A DNA stretch of 9,116 nt from a virus (lineage: Duplodnaviria > Heunggongvirae > Uroviricota > Caudoviricetes): the IMG/VR virus record IMGVR_UViG_2778261031_000001, positions 1 through 9,116 of that record; one strand, written 5' to 3'. Shown piece by piece: positions 1 to 9,116 of the stretch. The notes beneath the pieces were generated by a model. It had not been told where the DNA came from and ran no database searches. It saw only the letters and a list, made by a program, of their open reading frames with translations. The translations under genes were made by a program, and so were the position numbers. Each line of letters opens with the position of its first letter. Within the stretch, counting starts at the first letter, position 1.

Positions 1-110
1 TGCTTCCATCGGAAACGATGATCTGGCAGCCTGAGTTCACAGATAAAACACTCTCCAGGAAACCCGGGGCGGTTCAACTGTGTTGGCTTGCTGTAACTTG
101 CTTGTGTCAT
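1..110 (-). CDS. possible 5' end of a leftward early gene, partial (continues beyond window start)
   Basis: ATG at 110..108 (- strand) opens a frame with no stop through position 1 (MTQASYSKPTQLNRPGFPGECFICELRL...). It lies downstream of cro/nutR where cII or replication genes sit in lambdoid order. RBS is weak and the N-terminus does not resemble lambda CII. Confidence 0.25.
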   Translation of the reverse strand, partial: MTQASYSKPTQLNRPGFPGECFICELRLPDHRFRWK

Positions 111-148
111 TTCTTAATATTTCCAATAGTGAATAGTTAGTTGAAAGG

Positions 149-166
149 TATGCGTGGAAACGCATA
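149..166 (-). promoter_or_regulatory. perfect 7-bp stem / 4-nt loop hairpin between nutR and the next leftward gene (possible tR1-region element)
   Basis: TATGCGT-ggaa-ACGCATA inverted repeat on the + strand; no adjacent T-run, so not a classic intrinsic terminator. Confidence 0.3.
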
Positions 167-213
167 TGGCCTTGGTTGGTCAGATATTCTGGGATTCGCT
201 TTTCAGCGACGTA

Positions 214-241
214 GGACGAATGTCCGTTGTTACAAAGAGCG
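214..241 (-). promoter_or_regulatory. candidate nutR (boxA + boxB) directly after the cro stop
   Basis: - strand reads CGCTCTTTG (boxA-like, 241..233), TAACAAC, then GGACATTCGTCC hairpin (225..214), then TACGT. The same boxA-AACAAC-hairpin-TACGT layout recurs upstream of N at 2946..2973. Confidence 0.45.
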
Positions 242-248
242 GGGTTAC

Positions 249-476
249 TTATGCTGCCAAAAGGTTCTTTTTGCTTATTTCAAGCATTTCGCTTGCTTGA
301 TATTTGCCACCAGAAATCTCTTCGATTTTTGATGCATATTTCGTTTTCCCAAAAAACTCAGTCTTAGGGAGGAAGCCGTTTTTGAGCCACTTATAGACAG
401 CCCTTTCGCTAACTCCACAAGCCTTCGCAACTTCAGGGATGCCGACACCTTTAATCGGCTCATCAAGATTTTGCAT
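249..476 (-). CDS. cro: Cro-like HTH repressor (75 aa if started at 476; the ORF track start at 509 gives 86 aa)
   Basis: Small HTH protein (GIPEVAKACGVSERAVYKWL) divergent from the CI gene. ATG at 476 has SD AAGGA 7 nt upstream and leaves a 78-bp operator region; start at 509 would place the operator palindrome inside the coding sequence. Confidence 0.7.
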   Translation of the reverse strand: MQNLDEPIKGVGIPEVAKACGVSERAVYKWLKNGFLPKTEFFGKTKYASKIEEISGGKYQASEMLEISKKNLLAA

Positions 477-507
477 GTGGATATCCTTTTTCGTACTTTC
501 AGTACGC

Positions 508-535
508 ATTATGATTGAACTGAAAGTTTTTGCAA
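508..535 (-). promoter_or_regulatory. candidate pR (drives cro)
   Basis: - strand -35 TTGCAA (530..535), 16-bp spacer, -10 CATAAT (513..508). The 517..529 operator lies in the spacer and the 493..505 operator covers the predicted start site. Confidence 0.45.
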
Positions 536-541
536 GTGCTT

Positions 542-547
542 TAGTAT
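542..547 (+). promoter_or_regulatory. candidate pRM -10 element giving a leaderless cI transcript
   Basis: TAGTAT sits 7 nt upstream of the cI ATG (555), and no Shine-Dalgarno precedes that ATG, consistent with the leaderless cI mRNA known for lambda pRM. No good -35 (nearest TTGAAC is 21 bp upstream). Confidence 0.3.
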
Positions 548-554
548 CGTACTC

Positions 555-1262
555 ATGGTTCAGAATGAAAAAGTGCGCAAAGAATTCGCCCAGCGGCTAG
601 CGCAAGCCTGTAAAGAAGCTGGTCTTGATGAACATGGTAGGGGAATGGCCATAGCCCGCGCCCTTTCTCTTTCGTCCAAAGGCGTTAGCAAATGGTTTAA
701 CGCTGAGTCTTTACCACGTCAGGAAAAAATGAATGCGCTTGCGAAATTTCTAAACGTTGATGTTGTGTGGCTTCAGCACGGCACTTCGTTAAATGGAGCG
801 AATGATGAAGATACTCTTTCATTTGTTGGCAAATTAAAAAAAGGGTTAGTGCGCGTGGTTGGTGAGGCAATTCTTGGTGTTGATGGTGCCATCGAGATGA
901 CCGAAGAGCGCGATGGGTGGCTCAAGATTTATAGCGATGATCCAGATGCCTTTGGTCTTCGTGTGAAAGGAGACAGCATGTGGCCCAGAATAAAATCAGG
1001 AGAATATGTACTCATTGAGCCTAACACCAAAGTATTCCCGGGTGATGAGGTGTTTGTCAGAACCGTTGAAGGACACAACATGATCAAAGTTCTTGGCTAT
1101 GACAGAGACGGAGAATACCAGTTTACAAGCATCAACCAGGACCATAGGCCAATAACGTTGCCTTATCATCAAGTAGCAAAGGTGGAGTATGTAGCTGGTA
1201 TTCTGAAGCAATCTCGCCATCTGGATGACATCGAGGCAAGGGAGTGGCTGAAAAGTTCGTGA
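555..1262 (+). CDS. cI: CI-type prophage repressor: N-terminal HTH plus C-terminal LexA/S24 autopeptidase domain
   Basis: 235 aa. N-terminal HTH (GMAIARALSLSSKGVSKWFNAESLP); C-terminal GDSMWP serine motif with downstream lysine (HNMIKVLGY) typical of the S24 Ser-Lys dyad; divergent from cro with operators between. Confidence 0.9.
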   Translation: MVQNEKVRKEFAQRLAQACKEAGLDEHGRGMAIARALSLSSKGVSKWFNAESLPRQEKMNALAKFLNVDVVWLQHGTSLNGANDEDTLSFVGKLKKGLVRVVGEAILGVDGAIEMTEERDGWLKIYSDDPDAFGLRVKGDSMWPRIKSGEYVLIEPNTKVFPGDEVFVRTVEGHNMIKVLGYDRDGEYQFTSINQDHRPITLPYHQVAKVEYVAGILKQSRHLDDIEAREWLKSS

Positions 1263-1359
1263 CTTCATCGTCACATAGCTGATAGCCAGTGGCCTGAAGA
1301 GACGTTTGGGTGACAAGAAGCACAGGTATTAACAATAACTTTCATGGTGATACGAATCA

Positions 1360-1902
1360 GTGGCTAAAAAAGGCGACTTTAAGCCTACCCAGAAAGAGGT
1401 TGAACAAGCTATTACTCGCTTGAAAAAAGTAACTTTTAGCGGAGTTACATGGACCGGAAGTGAGGGACGAACCCCAATCTGGTTTAAATTGGATCTCAAA
1501 GCTTTTGATGAAATTGGCAACCCAATCACAGGCATAAGATTTATGCTTCACTGGCGTCCTCCTATCGTTGAAGGGGTGGATATAGTGAAGATTTCATTTG
1601 TGATGTTTCTTCATGACAGGCGCATTTACGCGCTTGACCCGTACCCTGCGGATAACAAGCCACACCGTAATAAATCTATAGTGAACCATCCAGATTTTGT
1701 TGAGGTGGCTCGAGGTCCTCACTATCACATGTACTTCGAATCAGCTGGGGAAGAAATTGCACTTAAGCTTGAAACGAACATCAAGCCAGATGATTTTTTT
1801 GGCTACTGGAATTATTTTTGCGAGGCGCTTAATATCATATATGAAGGCAGCCCACCTTTACCTAATCAAGATAAATCAGGTCAGCTATCATGGGAAATGT
1901 AA
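1360..1902 (+). CDS. uncharacterized protein A (180 aa), first gene of the cassette at the rexAB-equivalent position
   Basis: ORF begins with GTG at 1360 (GGTGA 9 nt upstream); same strand as cI. No transmembrane segment, no recognisable catalytic motif apart from a His-rich patch GPHYHMYFES. Appears lower in GC than the cI and Ea22-like genes. Confidence 0.7.
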   Translation: MAKKGDFKPTQKEVEQAITRLKKVTFSGVTWTGSEGRTPIWFKLDLKAFDEIGNPITGIRFMLHWRPPIVEGVDIVKISFVMFLHDRRIYALDPYPADNKPHRNKSIVNHPDFVEVARGPHYHMYFESAGEEIALKLETNIKPDDFFGYWNYFCEALNIIYEGSPPLPNQDKSGQLSWEM

Positions 1903-2666
1903 CGTGTTCAACAGTCATATCTAAGCTCGGGTTTGAATGCCACCCAATGAGCGACACGTTGCTGCGCGTTATTAGTCCCTTCACATACTACGATGATTGT
2001 GAGCAGATAAGTGTATTCGTTCAAGAGATGAGTGGTCAGTATAGGGTTACAGACTACTGCGATACATTGATGAATATTGAATCACGCGGCATCCACCTGA
2101 CTAAAAAGAAAATTGATCTGATCAGGTCATCACTCGCTTCGCAAGGAATTTCATTAAATGACTCTGGAGAGATATCTGCGTGGGCAGATGAGTCGTCCGT
2201 TGGACAGGTAACTGCAAATGTTATTCGTGGTGGGATTCTTGCATCCGCCCAAACTGCTGATTGGTATGCTGAGGTCAAAGACGATAAGTTCGAAAAATGT
2301 GTAATCAGTTACTTAAAATCAGCAGGGCTTGGGAAGCGACTAGCCTTAAAGGAAAAAGTGAAAGGTATTAGTGGGCATAACATTACTGTTCCGTTAACGC
2401 TAAGGAATGAGTCTCGACTAATACCACCAAAACGCGGGTTTACGGTAAGCCTTGCCAGCAGTAAGGGATGGAATACTGCCCACTCAACAGTTGGGAAGAT
2501 TGTTGACTTAAGTCAGGTCGTTCCTGACATAAACAATAGATTTGTAATAGTTGACAGCGATGGGTTAACACCTGAGCTACAGCAACTATCACTACTATTT
2601 AATGATACCGCACGAGTGTTGCCATTCCATACCAGAGACTCTTGGATTGAGTCTCTGGTAGCCTAG
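1890..2666 (+). CDS. uncharacterized protein B (258 aa; 239 aa if started at ATG 1947), second gene of the cassette
   Basis: ATG 1890 overlaps the stop of protein A (ATGGGAAATGTAA), suggesting translational coupling. Soluble, no family recognised. Followed directly by an intrinsic terminator. Confidence 0.7.
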   Translation: MGNVTCSTVISKLGFECHPMSDTLLRVISPFTYYDDCEQISVFVQEMSGQYRVTDYCDTLMNIESRGIHLTKKKIDLIRSSLASQGISLNDSGEISAWADESSVGQVTANVIRGGILASAQTADWYAEVKDDKFEKCVISYLKSAGLGKRLALKEKVKGISGHNITVPLTLRNESRLIPPKRGFTVSLASSKGWNTAHSTVGKIVDLSQVVPDINNRFVIVDSDGLTPELQQLSLLFNDTARVLPFHTRDSWIESLVA

Positions 2667-2670
2667 AAAA

Positions 2671-2698
2671 ACCCGGCCTCAGCGCCGGGTTTTCTTTG
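2671..2698 (+). terminator. rho-independent terminator ending the cI / accessory cassette unit
   Basis: ACCCGGC-ctcagc-GCCGGGT 7-bp GC-rich stem followed by TTTCTTTG; begins 5 nt after the protein B stop. Position matches lambda tImm. Confidence 0.75.
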
Positions 2699-2856
2699 CC
2701 TCACAGACTTAACAACCGCACATGTGGTAAACCGCAAACCAACACGCCAGCAAAATCATTCTTTCTCCACAACTGACCAGTCTTCAACCTTTACAAAAAT
2801 AAATTTCCTTATATATCAAAATCATATTTCGTAGAGTTAATAAATCACAAAATTTC

Positions 2857-2893
2857 GTACCAATAGTTCTTGATAATGTCGAACTATTAGTTC
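2857..2893. promoter_or_regulatory. oL operators: two 13-bp sites of the same family as oR
   Basis: GTACCAATAGTTC (2857..2869, 1 mismatch) and GAACTATTAGTTC (2881..2893, perfect palindrome); centres 24 bp apart. Confidence 0.55.
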
Positions 2894-2898
2894 ATTAT
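2870..2898 (+). promoter_or_regulatory. candidate pL
   Basis: -35 TTGATA (2870..2875), 17-bp spacer containing the perfect operator palindrome, -10 CATTAT (2893..2898); correctly placed upstream of nutL and N. Confidence 0.5.
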
Positions 2899-2945
2899 TA
2901 TCGCCATCAGCAGGAAGCTGGAAGCCAAACGGAACAGACTGGCAG

Positions 2946-2973
2946 GCTCTTTAAACAACGTCGAACACTCGAC
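2946..2973 (+). promoter_or_regulatory. candidate nutL (boxA + boxB)
   Basis: GCTCTTTAAACAA (close to the rrn/lambdoid boxA consensus) followed by GTCGA-acac-TCGAC hairpin and TACGT, about 120 nt upstream of N. Confidence 0.5.
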
Positions 2974-3089
2974 TACGTGGCTGAAAAGCCAGATCACCCA
3001 ACCACATAAGCTGTGGGATGCAATGCCGAAGCAACCGTCTCAGGAGGGGCTTCGAGATTGCATCGCCAAAGTTTATTCGGGAGGAATCT

Positions 3090-3362
3090 ATGTCCAGAAA
3101 AACAGAATTTAAAGGAACCGCAGCTTCTCGCCGTAGAGCTCGTCGTGCAAATCTGCAAAGTCAGGAGGCGATCAGCTCCGACAAGCTACACAGGCCAACC
3201 CCTTCACGAGTGGTCTTGCAATGCAAGCGCAAACCAGCAATGAGAGCAGAAGTGATAACTCTGACAACGTTGACCAGAAAATATGAAGGTTCAACTTGTC
3301 TTCCGAACGTAGCCATTTACGCGGCAGGCTATCGGAAATCAAAACAACTGACGGCGAGATGA
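3090..3362 (+). CDS. N: N-type transcription antiterminator, P22 gp24-like (90 aa)
   Basis: Arg-rich N-terminal motif (TAASRRRARRANLQ); C-terminus LPNVAIYAAGYRKSKQLTAR closely resembles the P22 gp24 C-terminus as I recall it. Strong RBS GGGAGG 5 nt before ATG 3090. The track's 3018 start is an unsupported upstream extension. Confidence 0.85.
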   Translation: MSRKTEFKGTAASRRRARRANLQSQEAISSDKLHRPTPSRVVLQCKRKPAMRAEVITLTTLTRKYEGSTCLPNVAIYAAGYRKSKQLTAR

Positions 3363-3426
3363 CTTGTGTTGGTCGCCAGAAGCAACGCGGAAAATCAATT
3401 CCAGCTTATTACGATTGAGGTGAGCC

Positions 3427-3564
3427 ATGCTCAAGAAAGTCAAACGCCGACTTTACAAAGAAGGTAGATATTCATGCCAGTTGCCAAAATGCGACACAAC
3501 AAAATGGAGTGTCGATGATTGGTGTAACTGGATAGATAGATACGGAACTTGGTGGGATAAATAA
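3427..3564 (+). CDS. small Cys/Trp-rich protein (45 aa), below the ORF-track length cutoff
   Basis: ATG 3427 preceded by TTGAGGTGAG (3415..3424). Translation MLKKVKRRLYKEGRYSCQLPKCDTTKWSVDDWCNWIDRYGTWWDK; the same 10-mer precedes the next gene. Confidence 0.4.
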   Translation: MLKKVKRRLYKEGRYSCQLPKCDTTKWSVDDWCNWIDRYGTWWDK

Positions 3565-3618
3565 CAGGTAACTTAAGCGTATTTACTTTCGCAGCAAACC
3601 AATTATTTGAGGTGAGAT

Positions 3619-4089
3619 ATGACAAAATCATGGAGCGTACCTTTTCCTGAATCAGAAACTGAACATGAGGGAATGCCTGTTTTCTGGAGATTCCAGGAGA
3701 CAGTTGAAGAAGATGGAATCAAAATATTCGCACTTCAATATATAGCTTTTCATCAGACAGAGCATTATGCATGGTTGGTTCCTGCGCATTGGATTGTTAA
3801 TTTTAAACCAACACCAAATCAGTGGTTACAGGAATGGAAACAAAAGAGAAATAGATATGCAATTAAGAAAGTAGCAAAAAATGCAGAAAGATCTTTTGCA
3901 TTCCCAACGAAGAAACTTGCCATTGAAAGTTTATTGCGCCGGAAGAAATACCATTTAATGATAATCAAACAAGATTTGGCTGTTGTATCAACTCTTGTTG
4001 ATGGGATGAAGAATATTGATACATCAACACCAGATATTGAATATAACTTTGGACACAACCAAGAAACAGAAAACTGGGTGTTTTATTAG
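3619..4089 (+). CDS. uncharacterized AT-rich accessory protein (156 aa)
   Basis: ATG 3619 preceded by TTGAGGTGAG (3607..3616). Markedly AT-rich compared with neighbours. Sits between N and cIII, the lambda ral/sieB/ea10 neighbourhood. Confidence 0.75.
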   Translation: MTKSWSVPFPESETEHEGMPVFWRFQETVEEDGIKIFALQYIAFHQTEHYAWLVPAHWIVNFKPTPNQWLQEWKQKRNRYAIKKVAKNAERSFAFPTKKLAIESLLRRKKYHLMIIKQDLAVVSTLVDGMKNIDTSTPDIEYNFGHNQETENWVFY

Positions 4090-4103
4090 TACGAATAAGC
4101 ACT

Positions 4104-4131
4104 GTGTATTCATTCCAACGAGTGAATACAC
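4104..4131 (+). promoter_or_regulatory. perfect 9-bp stem / 10-nt loop inverted repeat after the AT-rich gene
   Basis: GTGTATTCA-ttccaacgag-TGAATACAC; no T-run follows, so an RNA structure or protein-binding site rather than an intrinsic terminator. Confidence 0.3.
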
Positions 4132-4193
4132 GGAGCAATGTCGCTCGTAACTAAACAGGAGCCGACTTGTTCTGATTATTGGAAATCTTCTTT

Positions 4194-4217
4194 GCCCTCC
4201 AGTGTGAGGGCCTTTTT
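4194..4217 (+). terminator. rho-independent terminator inside the pL operon (tL-like)
   Basis: GCCCTC-cagtgtg-GAGGGC stem-loop followed by CTTTTT. Confidence 0.6.
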
Positions 4218-4279
4218 ATATGCATACCAATAACGCTTCACTAGAGGCGTTTTCGTTATGTATAAATAAGGAGCACACC

Positions 4280-4420
4280 ATGCAATATGCCATTGCAGGG
4301 TGGCCTGTTGCTGGCTGCCCTTCCGAATCTTTACTTGAACGAATCACCCGTAAATTACGTGACGGATGGAAACGCCTTATCGACATACTTAATCAGCCAG
4401 GAGTTCCCAAAAATGGATAA
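4280..4420 (+). CDS. cIII: CIII (protease inhibitor protecting CII), 46 aa
   Basis: MQYAIAGWPVAGCPSESLLERITRKLRDGWKRLIDILNQPGVPKNG matches lambda CIII as I recall it, minus the last ~8 residues. Strong RBS AAGGAG 6 nt before ATG 4280; the track's 4220 start is an unsupported extension. Confidence 0.85.
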   Translation: MQYAIAGWPVAGCPSESLLERITRKLRDGWKRLIDILNQPGVPKNG

Positions 4421-4526
4421 AACACTTATGGCTATCCAGACTAAATTCACTATCGCCACTTTTATTGGCGATGAAAAGATGTTTCGTGAGGCCATCGAAG
4501 CCTACAGAAAATGGAGGTCAAAATGA
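4413..4526 (+). CDS. kil: Kil-like host cell-division inhibitor (37 aa)
   Basis: MDKTLMAIQTKFTIATFIGDEKMFREAIEAYRKWRSK resembles lambda Kil from memory; immediately downstream of cIII as in lambda; SD AGGAG 9 nt upstream. Start overlaps the cIII 3' end by 8 nt. Confidence 0.75.
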   Translation: MDKTLMAIQTKFTIATFIGDEKMFREAIEAYRKWRSK

Positions 4527-4711
4527 TTCCGGTAGAACTGGCGAAAACTCCAGAATTAAGTCGATTAAAAAGAGAATATCACATTGCTGAGGCTCGTTAC
4601 TGGCGTAAAGCGGGAGATAAATCAAAGAAACAACTTTGTTTATGGCAGGCTCAAAGAGAGCGCATGAATGAGCGCGAGTTTCTTTCCTCCCCATCCGAAC
4701 TACCATTCTGA
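4523..4711 (+). CDS. hypothetical protein (62 aa)
   Basis: ATG 4523 overlaps the kil stop (ATGA) with GGAGG 5 nt upstream. Basic, helical-looking; no family recognised. Confidence 0.6.
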   Translation: MIPVELAKTPELSRLKREYHIAEARYWRKAGDKSKKQLCLWQAQRERMNEREFLSSPSELPF

Positions 4712-4719
4712 GGCAAATT

Positions 4720-5400
4720 ATGGGAACTGCGACATTAATACTCGGTGAGTCTGGCACCGGAAAATCAACCAGCATGAGAAATATCAATCCCGAGGAAGCA
4801 ATACTTATAAAACCAATAGGCAAGCCGCTACCATTTAAATCAAAAGAATGGCTGGCATGGGATGCCAGAGCAAAAAAAGGAACCGTAGTTACCACTGACA
4901 AATGGGACGTAATAGTTGCCGTAATTAAGCGTGCTCACGAATACGGGAAAAGAATCGTTATTGTTGATGACTTCCAGTATGTGATGAGCAATGAGTTTAT
5001 GCGCCGCTCAGAAGAAAAATCGTTTGATAAATTTACTGAGATAGGCCGCCACGCATGGGAGGTGATTAAGGCTGCACAGGATGCACCTGATGACCTGAGA
5101 GTCTATTTTCTTGCACACACCGAAGAAACCCCTATGGGGCGCGTGAAAATGAAAACTATCGGCAAAATGCTGGACGAGAAAATCACTGTCGAAGGCATGT
5201 TTACTATAGTTCTTCGCACCCTTACCCGTGATGACCAGTTCTTTTTCACCACAAAAAACAACGGTGCAGACACTGTTAAATCCCCAATGGGAATGTTTGA
5301 CTCCAATGAGATTGATAACGATCTCTCTTTCGTCGATGCCACTGTTTGTGATTACTACGGCATCAATAATGTTCATCAAATTAAGGAAAACGCCGCATGA
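4720..5400 (+). CDS. P-loop NTPase, possibly Sak4-like (RecA/Rad51-core) recombination ATPase, 226 aa
   Basis: Walker A GESGTGKST near the N-terminus and Walker B RIVIVDDF. Size and position (where lambda has gam-bet-exo) are consistent with a Sak4/AAA_24-type protein; the family call is from memory. Confidence 0.8.
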   Translation: MGTATLILGESGTGKSTSMRNINPEEAILIKPIGKPLPFKSKEWLAWDARAKKGTVVTTDKWDVIVAVIKRAHEYGKRIVIVDDFQYVMSNEFMRRSEEKSFDKFTEIGRHAWEVIKAAQDAPDDLRVYFLAHTEETPMGRVKMKTIGKMLDEKITVEGMFTIVLRTLTRDDQFFFTTKNNGADTVKSPMGMFDSNEIDNDLSFVDATVCDYYGINNVHQIKENAA

Positions 5401-5984
5401 GCAACGTAATTTTTACTTATAACGAAGAAGCAGCACTGACCGCAGGGCAAGGTGGTTTTATTAACGAAACTGGCGCTCATATCATTACCATTACTGAAGC
5501 AGAACTAAAGCAATCAGAAAAAGGAGCCAAATTTATTGAGTTTTCTGGCGAATCCGACGACGGACGTAAAATCCAATATCTTAGCGTCTGTGTTCAGAAA
5601 AATGACGGAACGGAAAATAAATTTGGCGCAAATGTCGTCCACGCCATGATGGGGTGTGCCGGGATTGGACAATTAACGCAACATATGGTTTCCGCCAGTA
5701 AATTTGTTGCTCCTGAATTTCATGGAAAGAAAATCGGGTTAGTGCTCCAGAAAGTATTAACCACAAACAAAAAGACTGGCGCAGACAGCTACCAGATGGA
5801 AATACGCATCCCGTTTATTGCACAAACAGGTCAAACCCTTAAAGAAAAGGCGGAAGGCAAGCAACCAGAAACTATCGCCAACATGGTTGCCAGCCTCAAA
5901 GATAAAGACAATCGCTCTAAAAACGTAAGCCAGAATCATGCAGATGATTATGGTTACAGCCAGAACGATTACCCTCCTTTCTGA
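5397..5984 (+). CDS. hypothetical protein (195 aa), possible ssDNA-binding partner of the ATPase
   Basis: ATGA overlap with the ATPase gene. C-terminal tail ...DDYGYSQNDYPPF is reminiscent of the acidic ...DDDIPF SSB tail; Sak4-type genes are typically adjacent to an SSB-like gene. Function is inference only. Confidence 0.75.
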   Translation: MSNVIFTYNEEAALTAGQGGFINETGAHIITITEAELKQSEKGAKFIEFSGESDDGRKIQYLSVCVQKNDGTENKFGANVVHAMMGCAGIGQLTQHMVSASKFVAPEFHGKKIGLVLQKVLTTNKKTGADSYQMEIRIPFIAQTGQTLKEKAEGKQPETIANMVASLKDKDNRSKNVSQNHADDYGYSQNDYPPF

Positions 5985-6007
5985 TTACTGAAAATAAGGC
6001 TCCCATT

Positions 6008-6301
6008 ATGCCAGCGCCTCAGTATGGTGCGGATGACCCGCGCCGCTGTTCCGGCAATTCCGTGTCGGAGGTGCTGGATAAATTCAGAAAAAACTACGAT
6101 CGGATAATGTCGCTACCGCAGGAAACGAAAAAGGAAAAGGAATTTCGCCACTGTATATGGCTTGCAGAGAAAGAAGAACGCGAGCGAATTTACCAGACAT
6201 CAATCCGACCATTCCGCAAAGCCACATATACCCACTTCCCTGAAATTGACCCGCGCCTGCGTAATTACCGCTCACGCTATGGCGCTATCAGTAATGACTG
6301 A
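6008..6301 (+). CDS. hypothetical protein (97 aa)
   Basis: ATG 6008 with TAAGG 8 nt upstream; co-oriented in the early-left operon. Confidence 0.65.
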
Positions 6302-6311
6302 GGAATTTACC

Positions 6312-6476
6312 ATGAGAGGACTTGCATACAATCCCGGCATTCTTCCGGCAGAAATGATTATTCGCCAACGCGTAAAGCCAATGCCATCGAGAGAGGAACT
6401 GCTTAAGAGAAATTCTTTTCCATCAGTAAATCAAAACAAATATCTGAATGTGGTGTGGCGGAGTGGGAAGAAATGA
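6312..6476 (+). CDS. hypothetical small protein (54 aa)
   Basis: ATG 6312 with GAGGA 7 nt upstream; its stop overlaps the next start (ATGA at 6473). The track's longer 6162 start overlaps the previous gene. Confidence 0.5.
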
Positions 6477-7069
6477 AACAAATGTCACTAATTGAGATGG
6501 ATGGATTTCTGAAAGGTAAATGCATCCCACGAGATTTAAAAGTTAACGAAACAAACGCTGAATATCTGGTGCGTAAGTTCGGTGAACTTGAATCAAAACT
6601 AGAAACGGCGTTGCGGGAGTGTCGTTCTGCTGGAATAACGATTGACAACCTTGAGGCTAAGTGTGCGGCGCTGGATGCTGATAACAAGAAAGCAATGGAG
6701 GCAATGAGGCAGGCAGATGCAGCCGTTAAGTTGGCACACGAGAAGTTTTCTGCGCTGGCGGCGGAGAATGCGAGACTGAAATCTGCGCCCCCTCAACCAT
6801 TCGGACCTGAGATGATGAAGGCTCTTGATGCGTATGAGAAGTATCAGGATGAAGTGCCGGAGACTGGGATGCTCAATGCATTTTTCATCTTGCGCGACAG
6901 TATCCGTGTTGACACCCCAGCCACCGACGCATTCCTGGCTGAAGTACGGGCGCAGGGCGTGGAGATGGCTATGGAGCATATGCAGTCGAGCGGCTCGTTA
7001 ACATTTGGAGATTGCTACATATCACTTAACGAGTTCGTCGCAGAGCTTCGCAAAGGAGGCAACCAGTGA
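6473..7069 (+). CDS. hypothetical coiled-coil protein (198 aa)
   Basis: ATGA coupling at 6473; Ala/Glu/Lys-rich central region ([44 protein letters not shown]) suggests coiled coil. The track's GTG 6455 start lies in the upstream gene. Confidence 0.7.
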
Positions 7070-7290
7070 GCGGAAAAAGAATGACTAACAGAGAGCTTGT
7101 CGATGCCGCGATTAAGCTTGCTGGTGACTTTTATTCAATGATGGGGTACGCGCATCGCCCTGGATTCAAATATTGGGAGTCGCCTCACCCGCAAGAGCAA
7201 CTGGTATTTCAAATGGCCTGCCGTGCTTTTGAGGTTATTCGCGGTTCTGATGTGATGGACGCCGTTGCCGACTTGGAGGATGAAGAGTGA
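7066..7290 (+). CDS. hypothetical protein (74 aa)
   Basis: GTG 7066 overlapping the previous stop (GTGA), preceded by AAGGAGG with 6-nt spacing. Confidence 0.7.
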   Translation: MSGKRMTNRELVDAAIKLAGDFYSMMGYAHRPGFKYWESPHPQEQLVFQMACRAFEVIRGSDVMDAVADLEDEE

Positions 7291-7781
7291 CCCAAATTAA
7301 CTATCAGGCGCTGCGTGAAGCGGCGGAGAAGGCCACGGCGCTCAATCTTGATACCGCTCAAGTGAAGCGCGGGAATGATGGATATCTTGAATGCCCATGC
7401 TGTGAGGGCGCTGGCTACGTGGAAGAGGAAAGCGACTTCTGCAATATCGACGGCGTGGCGCTCGGCGTTCAGTTCTACGGCATTGGCGAGCATTACGGAT
7501 TGGCTGAGTCATATCTCAGAGCAGCCAACCCCGCAACCGTTCTGGCGCTGCTGGATGAGCTGGATAAGTGGCAACAGGAATCATCAGCGTGGCAGGCGGT
7601 TGCGGAGAAGCAACTGGCTTTGGCGGCAGATGCAGAGAAGCGCATCGCTGAACTGGAAGAGAGGAAGGTTGTGCCGGATGAAATGACGCCAAAGCAAGCG
7701 TCGCGCTCATATTGCGGAGAAGTTAGAGGGTATCGTGATGGATGGAACGCCTGCCGTGCTGCCATGCTTCAGGGTGCCTAA
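7287..7781 (+). CDS. Ead/Ea22-like family protein (164 aa)
   Basis: GTG 7287 in GTGA overlap with GGAGGA upstream. Features recalled from Ead/Ea22-like prophage proteins: N-terminal ...QALREAAEKA..., CPCCEG Cys cluster, ...LLDELDKWQQE... segment. Confidence 0.75.
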   Translation: MTQINYQALREAAEKATALNLDTAQVKRGNDGYLECPCCEGAGYVEEESDFCNIDGVALGVQFYGIGEHYGLAESYLRAANPATVLALLDELDKWQQESSAWQAVAEKQLALAADAEKRIAELEERKVVPDEMTPKQASRSYCGEVRGYRDGWNACRAAMLQGA

Positions 7782-7853
7782 CCTGTAAGCCAAACTTACA
7801 AGTTGCCTCCCCTGTCATCCAACGAAGTAAACGACGCGGCATGGAAATTACAC

Positions 7854-8153
7854 AACATGCTGACTGAACACGGCCCGCTAAATGGGCGTCAGTTCAACAA
7901 TCTGAAAGGTTGCTTCTATGAGGCATTAAAGGTCGCAATGCGCAACTCTCCGGTAACTCCGGATGGTTGGATAAGCTGTAGTGAGCGAATGCCCGCTCAA
8001 GATGATTGGATTTTAATTTATTCAAAGCACGGCGAGTATATGGCAGGACAGGGACAAGGGGAATACGTGGAGTTGAGCGACGGCACTTTATCGTGGTTAG
8101 GGAACGCCTTGTACTGGATGCCGCTACCAGAACCGCCGCAGGAGGCGAAATGA
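7854..8153 (+). CDS. DUF551-like prophage protein (99 aa from ATG 7854; track ORF begins at TTG 7803)
   Basis: C-terminal ...WMPLPEPP... matches the DUF551 signature as I remember it. Start is uncertain: neither TTG 7803 nor ATG 7854 has a clear SD. Confidence 0.7.
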   Translation, partial: NMLTEHGPLNGRQFNNLKGCFYEALKVAMRNSPVTPDGWISCSERMPAQDDWILIYSKHGEYMAGQGQGEYVELSDGTLSWLGNALYWMPLPEPPQEAK

Positions 8154-8431
8154 TGGACTCCTTCGCGAAATATACGATTATTGACTGGATAGCCTTCCTT
8201 CAGGTTTTGCTCATCTGGTTTTATATGGCTTACAGGAGTGGACAGTGGATTGTCAGTGTAGCCTGTAGCAAGGGATGGCGTTGGTGGAACCGAAAGAATA
8301 AAAAAGCACTGGCCTTGGATTCGTTTTACGAAGCATTCAATCTTAACAGCCTTCAGCCTGGTTCTGTCATTGTAGTCACCACTCAAAGTGGCATGACCAT
8401 TCAGATTCATAAACCAAAAGAGGAAAAATGA
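8150..8431 (+). CDS. small predicted membrane protein (93 aa, one TM helix)
   Basis: ATG 8150 with GGAGG 5 nt upstream, overlapping the previous stop. Hydrophobic stretch YTIIDWIAFLQVLLIWFYMAY near the N-terminus. The track's 8006 start is an in-frame extension inside the upstream gene. Confidence 0.65.
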   Translation: MMDSFAKYTIIDWIAFLQVLLIWFYMAYRSGQWIVSVACSKGWRWWNRKNKKALALDSFYEAFNLNSLQPGSVIVVTTQSGMTIQIHKPKEEK

Positions 8432-8517
8432 TGTGGCTTATATGTGTTAATTGCGGACGGATGTGCCTATCTGGATGGTGCCGAAAGTGCGACAAATGCA
8501 CGAAGCAAAGACAATAA
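8428..8517 (+). CDS. possible Cys-rich micro-protein (29 aa)
   Basis: ATGA overlap with the upstream stop, GAGGAAAA just upstream. Translation MMWLICVNCGRMCLSGWCRKCDKCTKQRQ has 7 Cys in 29 residues; a terminator follows. Confidence 0.35.
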   Translation: MMWLICVNCGRMCLSGWCRKCDKCTKQRQ

Positions 8518-8551
8518 CAATCCTCGCACTCGCGGGGATTTCTTTTATCTG

Positions 8552-8576
8552 AACTCGCTACTGCGAGTTTTGTTTT
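8552..8576 (+). terminator. rho-independent terminator
   Basis: AACTCGC-tact-GCGAGTT stem-loop followed by TTGTTTT. Confidence 0.55.
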
Positions 8577-8588
8577 ATGGAGATGATT

Positions 8589-8888
8589 ATGGCCTGTTCA
8601 ACATTCAACCCTTTAACGTTACAGAAATACCAGCCAGACCCTGAAGATTTATGCTCACTGTGTGGCGGAGATCATGGTAAAGCCGCCATGATCGAATGTA
8701 AGGACAAAATCCACATATGCCTTGATTGCGTTGATGTCCTCGTTGATATCAAAAATGAAAGAGAAGATAAAAAGCGTAGCGAGGCTATTCGCGCCTTAGA
8801 TTCATGGATGCGAGATGGGTATAGTGCTGCGCAAATTTATGACTTAGCCATTTCAAAAGGCGAAATACCAGGTGTGCGAATCGAATAA
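8589..8888 (+). CDS. hypothetical protein with paired CxxC motifs (99 aa from ATG 8589)
   Basis: Three in-frame ATGs (8577, 8583, 8589); GGAG lies 6 nt before 8589. Contains CSLCGG ... CLDC, a zinc-ribbon-like spacing. Confidence 0.7.
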   Translation: MACSTFNPLTLQKYQPDPEDLCSLCGGDHGKAAMIECKDKIHICLDCVDVLVDIKNEREDKKRSEAIRALDSWMRDGYSAAQIYDLAISKGEIPGVRIE

Positions 8889-8923
8889 GAAGCGCACTCA
8901 AGCATCTTTTGGGGAAATCACAA

Positions 8924-9091
8924 ATGCACTTCCGAGTCACAGGTGAATGGAATGGAGAGCCATTCAACAGAGTTATCGAATCGGAGAACATCAACGACTG
9001 CTATGACCACTGGATGCTGTGGGCGCAGATAGCACATGCAGACATAACCGATATTCGAATTGAAGAACTGAAAGAACACCAAGCCGCCTGA
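8924..9091 (+). CDS. hypothetical small protein (55 aa from ATG 8924; track ORF starts at TTG 8909)
   Basis: GGGGAA 7 nt upstream of ATG 8924; followed immediately by a terminator. Confidence 0.55.
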   Translation: MHFRVTGEWNGEPFNRVIESENINDCYDHWMLWAQIAHADITDIRIEELKEHQAA

Positions 9092-9103
9092 TGGCGGTTT
9101 TTT
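9084..9103 (+). terminator. rho-independent terminator overlapping the stop of the last gene
   Basis: CCGCC-tgat-GGCGG stem-loop followed by TTTTTT. Confidence 0.6.
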
Positions 9104-9116
9104 CTTGCGTGTAATT

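Follow-up and report, generated by a model that had tools for sequence, protein, structure and literature searches.

The stretch of DNA analyzed here, called the window below, comprises 9,116 nucleotides (nt) of a virus of the Caudoviricetes (IMG/VR record IMGVR_UViG_2778261031_000001, positions 1 to 9,116), and its + strand reads as the leftward arm of a lambdoid immunity region. Directly after the CI-type repressor gene and ahead of the oL/pL region lie two co-oriented genes, hereafter A and B, which encode proteins of 180 and 258 amino acids (aa). An earlier sequence-only reading of the window had singled out this pair as a cassette placed in the rexAB position of lambda, overlapping stop-to-start and closed by a strong terminator just before oL/pL, and had taken it for a candidate lysogen-expressed defence system. 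The layout proved to be as described. The open reading frames (ORFs; Table 1) agree with RefSeq, which annotates the same A and B coding sequences (CDSs) in other genomes (WP_001074607.1 and WP_000528776.1), the stop of A and the start of B overlap by 13 nt (ATGGGAAATGTAA), an S24 repressor is encoded upstream, and a pL-like promoter, operator half-sites, nutL and N follow downstream.

The terminator that closes the cassette consists of a hairpin of -21.4 kcal/mol with a U-tract and stood out upon folding (z -3.4). When it was folded together with the hairpin found in the last codons of B, the value reached -41.2 kcal/mol (z -8.4). The locus of the type carried by Escherichia phage ev207, which encodes a related pair (see below), shares the terminator and lacks the 12-bp hairpin. 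On the other side, the gap between cI and the cargo is 97 nt, versus 112 nt between cI and rexA in lambda, and a scan of this spacer (1263-1359) for consensus promoters and terminators revealed no terminator and no convincing promoter. Because no terminator separates cI from A and B, we infer that the two genes are read through from the cI transcript. TTCGTAC operator half-sites are repeated in oR, between cro and cI, and in oL.

The slot is identical to that of lambda rexAB in its order (cI, two genes, terminator, oL/pL, N), and the likeness extends to the two-gene arrangement, which is presumably expressed in the lysogen, and to the comparable spacer after cI. The products are different, as the sequence-only reading had stated: they come in the reverse order of size and differ in fold. 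Homology of A or B to RexA or RexB was rejected, since BLASTP gave no E-value below 1 (best 1.7 or higher) and no Rex model of PADLOC matched at E<=1. A membrane protein of the RexB type was rejected as well, the maximum Kyte-Doolittle hydropathy over 19 residues being 1.22 (A) and 0.79 (B), without a segment above 1.6, versus 2.39 for RexB, in which 51 segments exceed 1.6. Both A and B are predicted to be soluble and cytoplasmic, with no transmembrane (TM) segment and no signal peptide. The cassette had also been described as AT-richer than its surroundings, but A and B have a GC content of 42.4% and 43.6%, respectively, versus 46.2% for cI and 45.0% for the window, and the other genes of the window range from 35.7 to 56.4%. 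The difference is negligible, and the compositional argument for horizontal acquisition therefore fails. Mobility is better seen on other grounds, as the cassette was found after at least five different repressors.

At a nucleotide identity of >=98.5% the cassette was present in 61 of 5,426 complete Escherichia coli genomes, in commensal, enterotoxigenic (ETEC) and Shiga toxin-producing (STEC) backgrounds. All six of the E. coli copies inspected lay directly after an S24 repressor gene and before N, next to five different repressor proteins and differing flanking modules. Enterobacter, Klebsiella, Cronobacter, Kosakonia, Salmonella and Yersinia encode close relatives with 60-90% protein identity. 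The same slot is taken by a sister subfamily (identity about 40-42% for A and about 51% for B) in Escherichia phages ev207 and ev017 and in a phage encoding Shiga toxin (Stx) 1a, in prophages of Enterobacteriaceae and Xenorhabdus with four further repressor types, and in prophages of Providencia, Yersinia and Izhakiella. This sister variant was detected in 239 of the 5,426 complete E. coli genomes (4.4%), including the probiotic strain Nissle 1917 (locus L031, NZ_CP022686.1 4789150-4790456; a further sister-pair locus is L002, 4450-5756) and ATCC 11775. Both subfamilies together thus account for about 5.5% of these genomes (61 + 239). The pairing of the two genes is strict: in 27 of 27 loci B comes directly after A, 21 of them with a 4-nt overlap, and these 27 include all 11 loci recovered by B alone, in a genome scan that used a single peptide pattern and is not a census.

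Past the cI stop codon, the first 51-58 nt are common to 66 phage records that do not carry the pair and that match positions 1-58 of the query only. That this junction is shared by phages with different cargo suggests that it is a recombination boundary sequence. The window repressor is itself a mosaic: by BLASTP its residues 82-235 (C-terminal 154 aa) share 95% identity with the CI protein of phage BP-4795, and the N-terminal DNA-binding part is unrelated. At the same slot and junction BP-4795 carries three genes that correspond to PD-Lambda-2_A (2.5e-42), PD-Lambda-2_B (3.8e-50, over its N-terminal part only) and PD-T4-9_C (3e-11), and 88 E. coli genomes carry a cassette of this type. Both PD-lambda-2 and PD-T4-9/CmdTAC have been validated by experiment as abortive-infection defences that resemble toxin-antitoxin systems (Vassallo et al. 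2022, PMC9519451). The slot holds rexAB in lambda and bstA in BTP1, and the cI-N region has already been described as a mosaic hotspot (Owen et al. 2021, PMC8585504). The variable cargo that the sequence-only reading had expected across related prophages was thus observed and, as judged from these comparisons, the repressor-to-pL slot is a defence hotspot, seen here through allelic replacement. Providencia and Izhakiella prophages have an additional DUF3024 gene (113 aa) between the repressor gene and A (L019 5052-5393, L020 5053-5394, L023 5044-5385), indicating that the slot can hold stacked cargo.

The known occupants of the slot resemble the A/B cassette in arrangement and not in sequence. 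BstA of the Salmonella prophage BTP1 is likewise encoded directly 3' of the repressor gene, has its own terminator, is highly expressed in the lysogen and is conserved in position across diverse prophages. It is, however, a single protein with a KilA-N-type domain and without homology to A or B, for which no BstA or KilA-N match was obtained in PADLOC or Pfam. BstA is accompanied by an aba self-immunity element, and no element of this kind was identified for the window pair. The PD-lambda-2/CmdTAC-related cassette of BP-4795 shares with A and B the slot and the organization into overlapping, multi-part components, but there is no homology between the two cassettes and no recognizable toxin family in A or B.

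Profile searches placed the pair in a family. Residues 30-112 of B match Pfam DUF1828 with 40.9 bits, versus a curated cut-off of 22, and the match was found in 13 of 14 members of the B family. B also matches the PADLOC model PDC-M24B (E 5.4e-7, residues 5-169 against profile positions 4-167 of 256), and relatives of B match this model over their full length at 4e-15. For A the corresponding similarities, to DUF6978 and PDC-M24A, are weak in the window protein and were detected in 7 of 33 (best 2e-6) and 4 of 33 members of its family, respectively. A and B fall into PHROGs 2017 and 1960, whose function is unassigned, and a search of NCBIfam gave no match for either. The earlier statement that neither protein could be placed in a family must accordingly be revised, firmly for B and weakly for A. 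On every readable contig, the gene of a distant A relative overlaps by 4 nt with a DUF1828 gene that comes right after it. The A family is rare, as a profile search of 1.84 billion representatives returned 42 clusters only (at 50% identity).

PDC-M entries are multi-gene phage defence candidates nominated by 'guilt-by-embedding', because members are embedded in BREX, DISARM or type I restriction-modification (RM) systems (Payne et al. 2024, bioRxiv 10.1101/2024.01.29.577857). PDC-M24 (FAM_00129>>FAM_00065) combines a DUF6978-like A with a DUF1828 B, and the window pair resembles it in gene order and in size (A about 146-180 aa, B about 255 aa). For B the homology extends over both domains, A shows a weak resemblance in the C-terminal half including the HxH region, and distant relatives of the window pair also adjoin restriction systems. 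The differences are that the window proteins match the hidden Markov models (HMMs) weakly and with partial coverage, and that the window pair is located in a prophage immunity region, not inside an RM, BREX or DISARM operon. The same is true of all Enterobacterales loci, which lie in prophage immunity regions and none of which is next to RM, BREX or DISARM genes. We therefore consider the window pair to be probably a divergent, prophage-adapted branch of the candidate PDC-M24 (DUF6978 + DUF1828). Literature searches with DUF1828, DUF6978, PDC-M24 and the RefSeq accessions retrieved no functional study.

Restriction genes adjoin distant relatives only. Pairs with 28-29% identity, found in metagenome-assembled genomes of Beta- and Gammaproteobacteria, are situated just ahead of co-oriented restriction-type genes. 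In one of these loci (L024) the neighbours are a type III-like N6_N4 methylase and a ResIII helicase, in a second (L029) a methylase, and in a third (L026) a methylase, an AAA protein and a DUF2357/PDDEXK_7 protein. In two others (L012 and L014) the pair is followed by a PDC-M26A-like protein, a DUF2357/PDDEXK_7 protein and a prokaryotic Argonaute-like (pAgo-like) fragment. The restriction neighbours are type III or McrBC-like. The prophage immunity slot and the restriction islands are two unrelated neighbourhoods, and both point to defence.

These associations bear on two other explanations of the pair. Its position next to cI would suit an accessory factor of lysogeny or excision that tunes the switch, the induction or the recombination of its own prophage and does not act on foreign phages, and some fold neighbours of B are in keeping with such a role. 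A factor of this kind is nevertheless hard to reconcile with a cassette that follows at least five repressors of differing immunity and sits beside differing replication and recombination modules, with the many lambdoid phages that do without the pair, and with homologous pairs outside prophages, next to restriction-modification genes; we regard it as quite improbable. The least probable of the explanations in our estimate is a lysogenic-conversion moron with a role in host fitness unrelated to phages, such as stress tolerance, metabolism or virulence, for which there is no specific support. Lambdoid prophages do carry genes of this sort, bstA was first linked to virulence phenotypes, and the cassette occurs in commensal strains as well as in ETEC and STEC. 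However, A and B are predicted to be cytoplasmic and have no signal peptide or TM segment, neither matches a metabolic or virulence family, and in unrelated bacteria the pair is associated with restriction systems, which is specific to a defence context.

The structure model of A was of good quality (predicted local distance difference test score, pLDDT, 87; predicted template modelling score, pTM, 0.83), and its comparison with solved structures found no relative. A Foldseek search of the model against BFVD matched a single uncharacterised siphovirus protein, and sequence searches of PDB chains, with single proteins as well as with profiles, returned chance-level matches alone (TCP-1 delta, a designer propeller and SPT16). 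Ten residues (W31, R88, D93, H102, N104, H121, H123, F153, P168 and Q175) are invariant in members down to about 20% identity. The His-rich patch GPHYHMYFES, to which the sequence-only reading had drawn attention, is real and contains two of them, H121 and H123. The Asp/His/Asn/His/His cluster (D93/H102/N104/H121/H123) fits a putative metal-binding or catalytic site, the core of which lies in the His-rich patch. The C-terminal tail (about residues 166-180, …PLP…SGQxxL…) is conserved though it is predicted to be disordered, a combination typical of a docking motif.

The structure model of B (pLDDT 82) predicts two domains. The N-terminal DUF1828 domain (about residues 1-125), in which C6, C17, D36 and D55 are kept, has the modelled fold of type III secretion system (T3SS) chaperones and YbjN. 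The C-terminal domain (about residues 130-258) has a modelled restriction-endonuclease-like alpha-beta-beta-beta-alpha-beta fold, which includes the core of the PD-(D/E)xK superfamily. A Rossmann/CARF reading of this domain was dropped after inspection of strands 1-3, which form a hairpin meander. The residues conserved throughout the family in the C-terminal domain are F134, S161, G162, H/R163, W194, D206, R217, D/E222 and W252. The position of the motif Asp is taken by H/R163, after the invariant S161-G162, no acidic-x-Lys is conserved on strand 3, and K181 is not kept in distant members. By its predicted fold B is a member of the restriction-endonuclease superfamily, but its conserved residues do not bear out catalytic competence. 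Can2/Card1 and the type II endonucleases NgoMIV, PspGI and Cfr10I, which have the PD-(D/E)xK fold, show 5-15% sequence identity to B; unlike them the A/B pair has no CARF domain and no partner methylase, and the motif is not conserved.

The chaperone-like domain of B suggests, by analogy, a logic akin to the sensing of a phage protein by a chaperone that has been proposed for CmdTAC. A related chaperone gene is present in the alternative cargo of this slot in BP-4795; the domain of B is T3SS-chaperone/YbjN-like, a resemblance of fold alone, and not SecB-like as in CmdTAC. A further explanation is that A and B are an addiction module of the toxin-antitoxin type that stabilizes the prophage by post-segregational killing, any anti-phage effect being secondary. 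The two genes are small, overlap and keep an invariant order, one product has a nuclease-type fold, the BP-4795 cargo is toxin-antitoxin-like with an annotated HigB-family toxin, and the pair has been retained in a defective prophage of Nissle 1917. Yet A would be an atypical antitoxin, with its 180 aa, its invariant His cluster and no DNA-binding or known antitoxin domain, and no model of a toxin, an antitoxin or a SecB-like chaperone in Pfam, NCBIfam or PADLOC matches either protein. A search of 72,556 plasmids, on which such modules abound, found no copy, and the distant relatives adjoin restriction systems and not mobile-element backbones. An addiction module therefore seems unlikely to us.

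In all, we consider it fairly probable that A and B constitute a two-protein anti-phage defence system expressed in the lysogen and carried as exchangeable cargo of the repressor-to-pL slot. Three independent lines of context support defence: the occurrence of the pair after varied repressors, the allelic cargo of BP-4795 and the relatives adjacent to restriction genes. Several observations weigh against this interpretation. Guilt by association can equally flag addiction modules or regulators. The match of A to DUF6978 reaches 23.1 bits and is below the curated cut-off of 29.6, its match to PDC-M24A (E 4e-4) covers the C-terminal third only, and the match of B to PDC-M24B is weaker than a routine PADLOC call needs. 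Strands 2 and 3 show no conserved D...(D/E)xK in the alignment of the B family, which makes nuclease activity of B doubtful. Finally, the literature searches turned up no report of phage challenge, toxicity or expression for the pair or for any member of PDC-M24. The interpretation offered by the sequence-only reading thus stands as far as the slot and the contrast with RexAB are concerned, gains support for a lysogen-expressed defence cargo as the likely role, now with independent evidence from genomic context, and falls with respect to composition and the absence of a family. Sequence comparison places the cassette as a divergent member of a computationally flagged candidate family, located in a known defence hotspot.

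How such a system might work can be proposed tentatively. A and B would be transcribed together with cI from pRM/pRE and, being translationally coupled, would form a complex in which the disordered, conserved tail of A docks onto the T3SS-chaperone-like N-terminal domain of B. An early product of an infecting phage would perturb this complex and free an effector activity, either that of the restriction-endonuclease-fold domain of B or that of the putative metal site of A. The effector would then act on nucleic acid, and the infection would be aborted or blocked. Observed are the slot, the overlap and strict order of the genes, the modelled folds, the invariant residues and the neighbourhoods; joint expression with cI, the complex, its trigger, the chemistry of the effector and protection against phages itself are inferred. 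We hold this specific scheme to be possible but doubtful. It would be a mechanism of a kind not yet described, in which A is held through its tail by a sensor domain of B until phage proteins compete for it and liberate a non-canonical endonuclease-fold or metal-dependent effector.

The features of the locus are listed in Table 1. A 15-nt inverted pair (200-214 and 2973-2987, 93% complementary) forms boxB-like hairpins on opposite arms and probably represents nutR and nutL. The N gene was read from 3090 and probably does not start at 3018, because the Pfam N_peptide match (5.8e-32) covers residues 23-114 of the ORF 3018-3362, the ATG at 3090 has a strong Shine-Dalgarno sequence in front of it, and the N CDS annotated in related genomes (for example L001) is 273 nt long. 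Just after N, a 156-aa ORF (3619-4089) has the lowest GC content of the window (35.7%; 29% at third codon positions). It has no Pfam match and belongs to phrog_1636, of unassigned function; BP-4795 has this gene after N as well (ORF18), and it may be another moron. Further along the pL operon, the segment 4720-6301 encodes an AAA_24 (Sak4-like) ATPase, a single-stranded DNA-binding (SSB)-like protein (phrog_743) and a P22 Abc2-type anti-RecBCD protein (2e-62), by which the recombination module is assigned as P22-like and not lambda Red-type.

Table 1 Features of the A/B cassette and of the flanking immunity region in the window
Feature	Position	Strand	Basis or remark
Gene A	1360-1902	+	ORF, GTG start, 180 aa
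Gene B	1890-2666	+	ORF, 258 aa
CI-type repressor (context, not cargo)	555-1262	+	Pfam HTH_3 + Peptidase_S24
cro-like helix-turn-helix (HTH) gene	249-509	-	Divergent from the CI repressor gene
cI-to-A spacer, 97 nt	1263-1359	+	First 51-58 nt are the junction common to prophages with unrelated cargo
A/B stop/start overlap, 13 nt, ATGGGAAATGTAA	1890-1902	+	ORF coordinates
Perfect 12-bp hairpin with 7-nt loop, in the last codons of B	2630-2660	+	Directly 5' of the terminator
Intrinsic terminator closing the cassette	2665-2697	+	Stem 2672-2677/2684-2689, CCCGGC/GCCGGG, 6-nt loop, U-tract
oL/pL/nutL region (context)	2820-2992	+	TTCGTAC half-sites, pL-like promoter, boxA/boxB
pL-like promoter	2870-2898	+	Promoter scan
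nutL-like boxA/boxB	~2948-2990	+	
N antiterminator (context)	3090-3362	+	90 aa, probable start 3090; Pfam N_peptide

The sister variant is of particular relevance to E. coli Nissle 1917, which is fully resistant to lambda and to Stx phages (Bury et al. 2018, PMC5987069). Its defective lambdoid prophage 3 carries a pr gene, which explained only a drop of about 200-fold in the efficiency of plating (EOP), and another factor of this prophage was postulated (PMC5987069). Table S2 of that study lists two 'hypothetical' genes, 1291 and 1292, between a sieB-like gene and cI. In the Nissle genome we found, from sieB to cI, an N-like gene, a small hypothetical gene and an ev207-type A/B pair that adjoins cI; this pair lies in the defective prophage at icd. 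Because the gene order agrees, genes 1291 and 1292 are most probably the ev207-type pair. With the same reservation as for the mechanism proposed above, of which this forms part, the sister variant could be the second factor of Nissle 1917 against lambda and Stx phages.

If the cassette is active, it would add a defence family to the rexAB position of lambda, the most thoroughly studied of all prophage slots, made of proteins without a characterised relative, one of which (A) has no solved structural neighbour. The occurrence of the same family beside restriction systems of Betaproteobacteria links the morons of prophages to the cargo of defence islands, and the window pair would offer the first functional test of the PADLOC candidate PDC-M24. 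The carriers include the probiotic strain Nissle 1917, the type strain ATCC 11775 and an Stx1a-converting phage. With such carriers and with a presence in about 5.5% of E. coli genomes, the family could shape the outcome of phage therapy, the spread of Stx phages and the phage resistance of probiotics.

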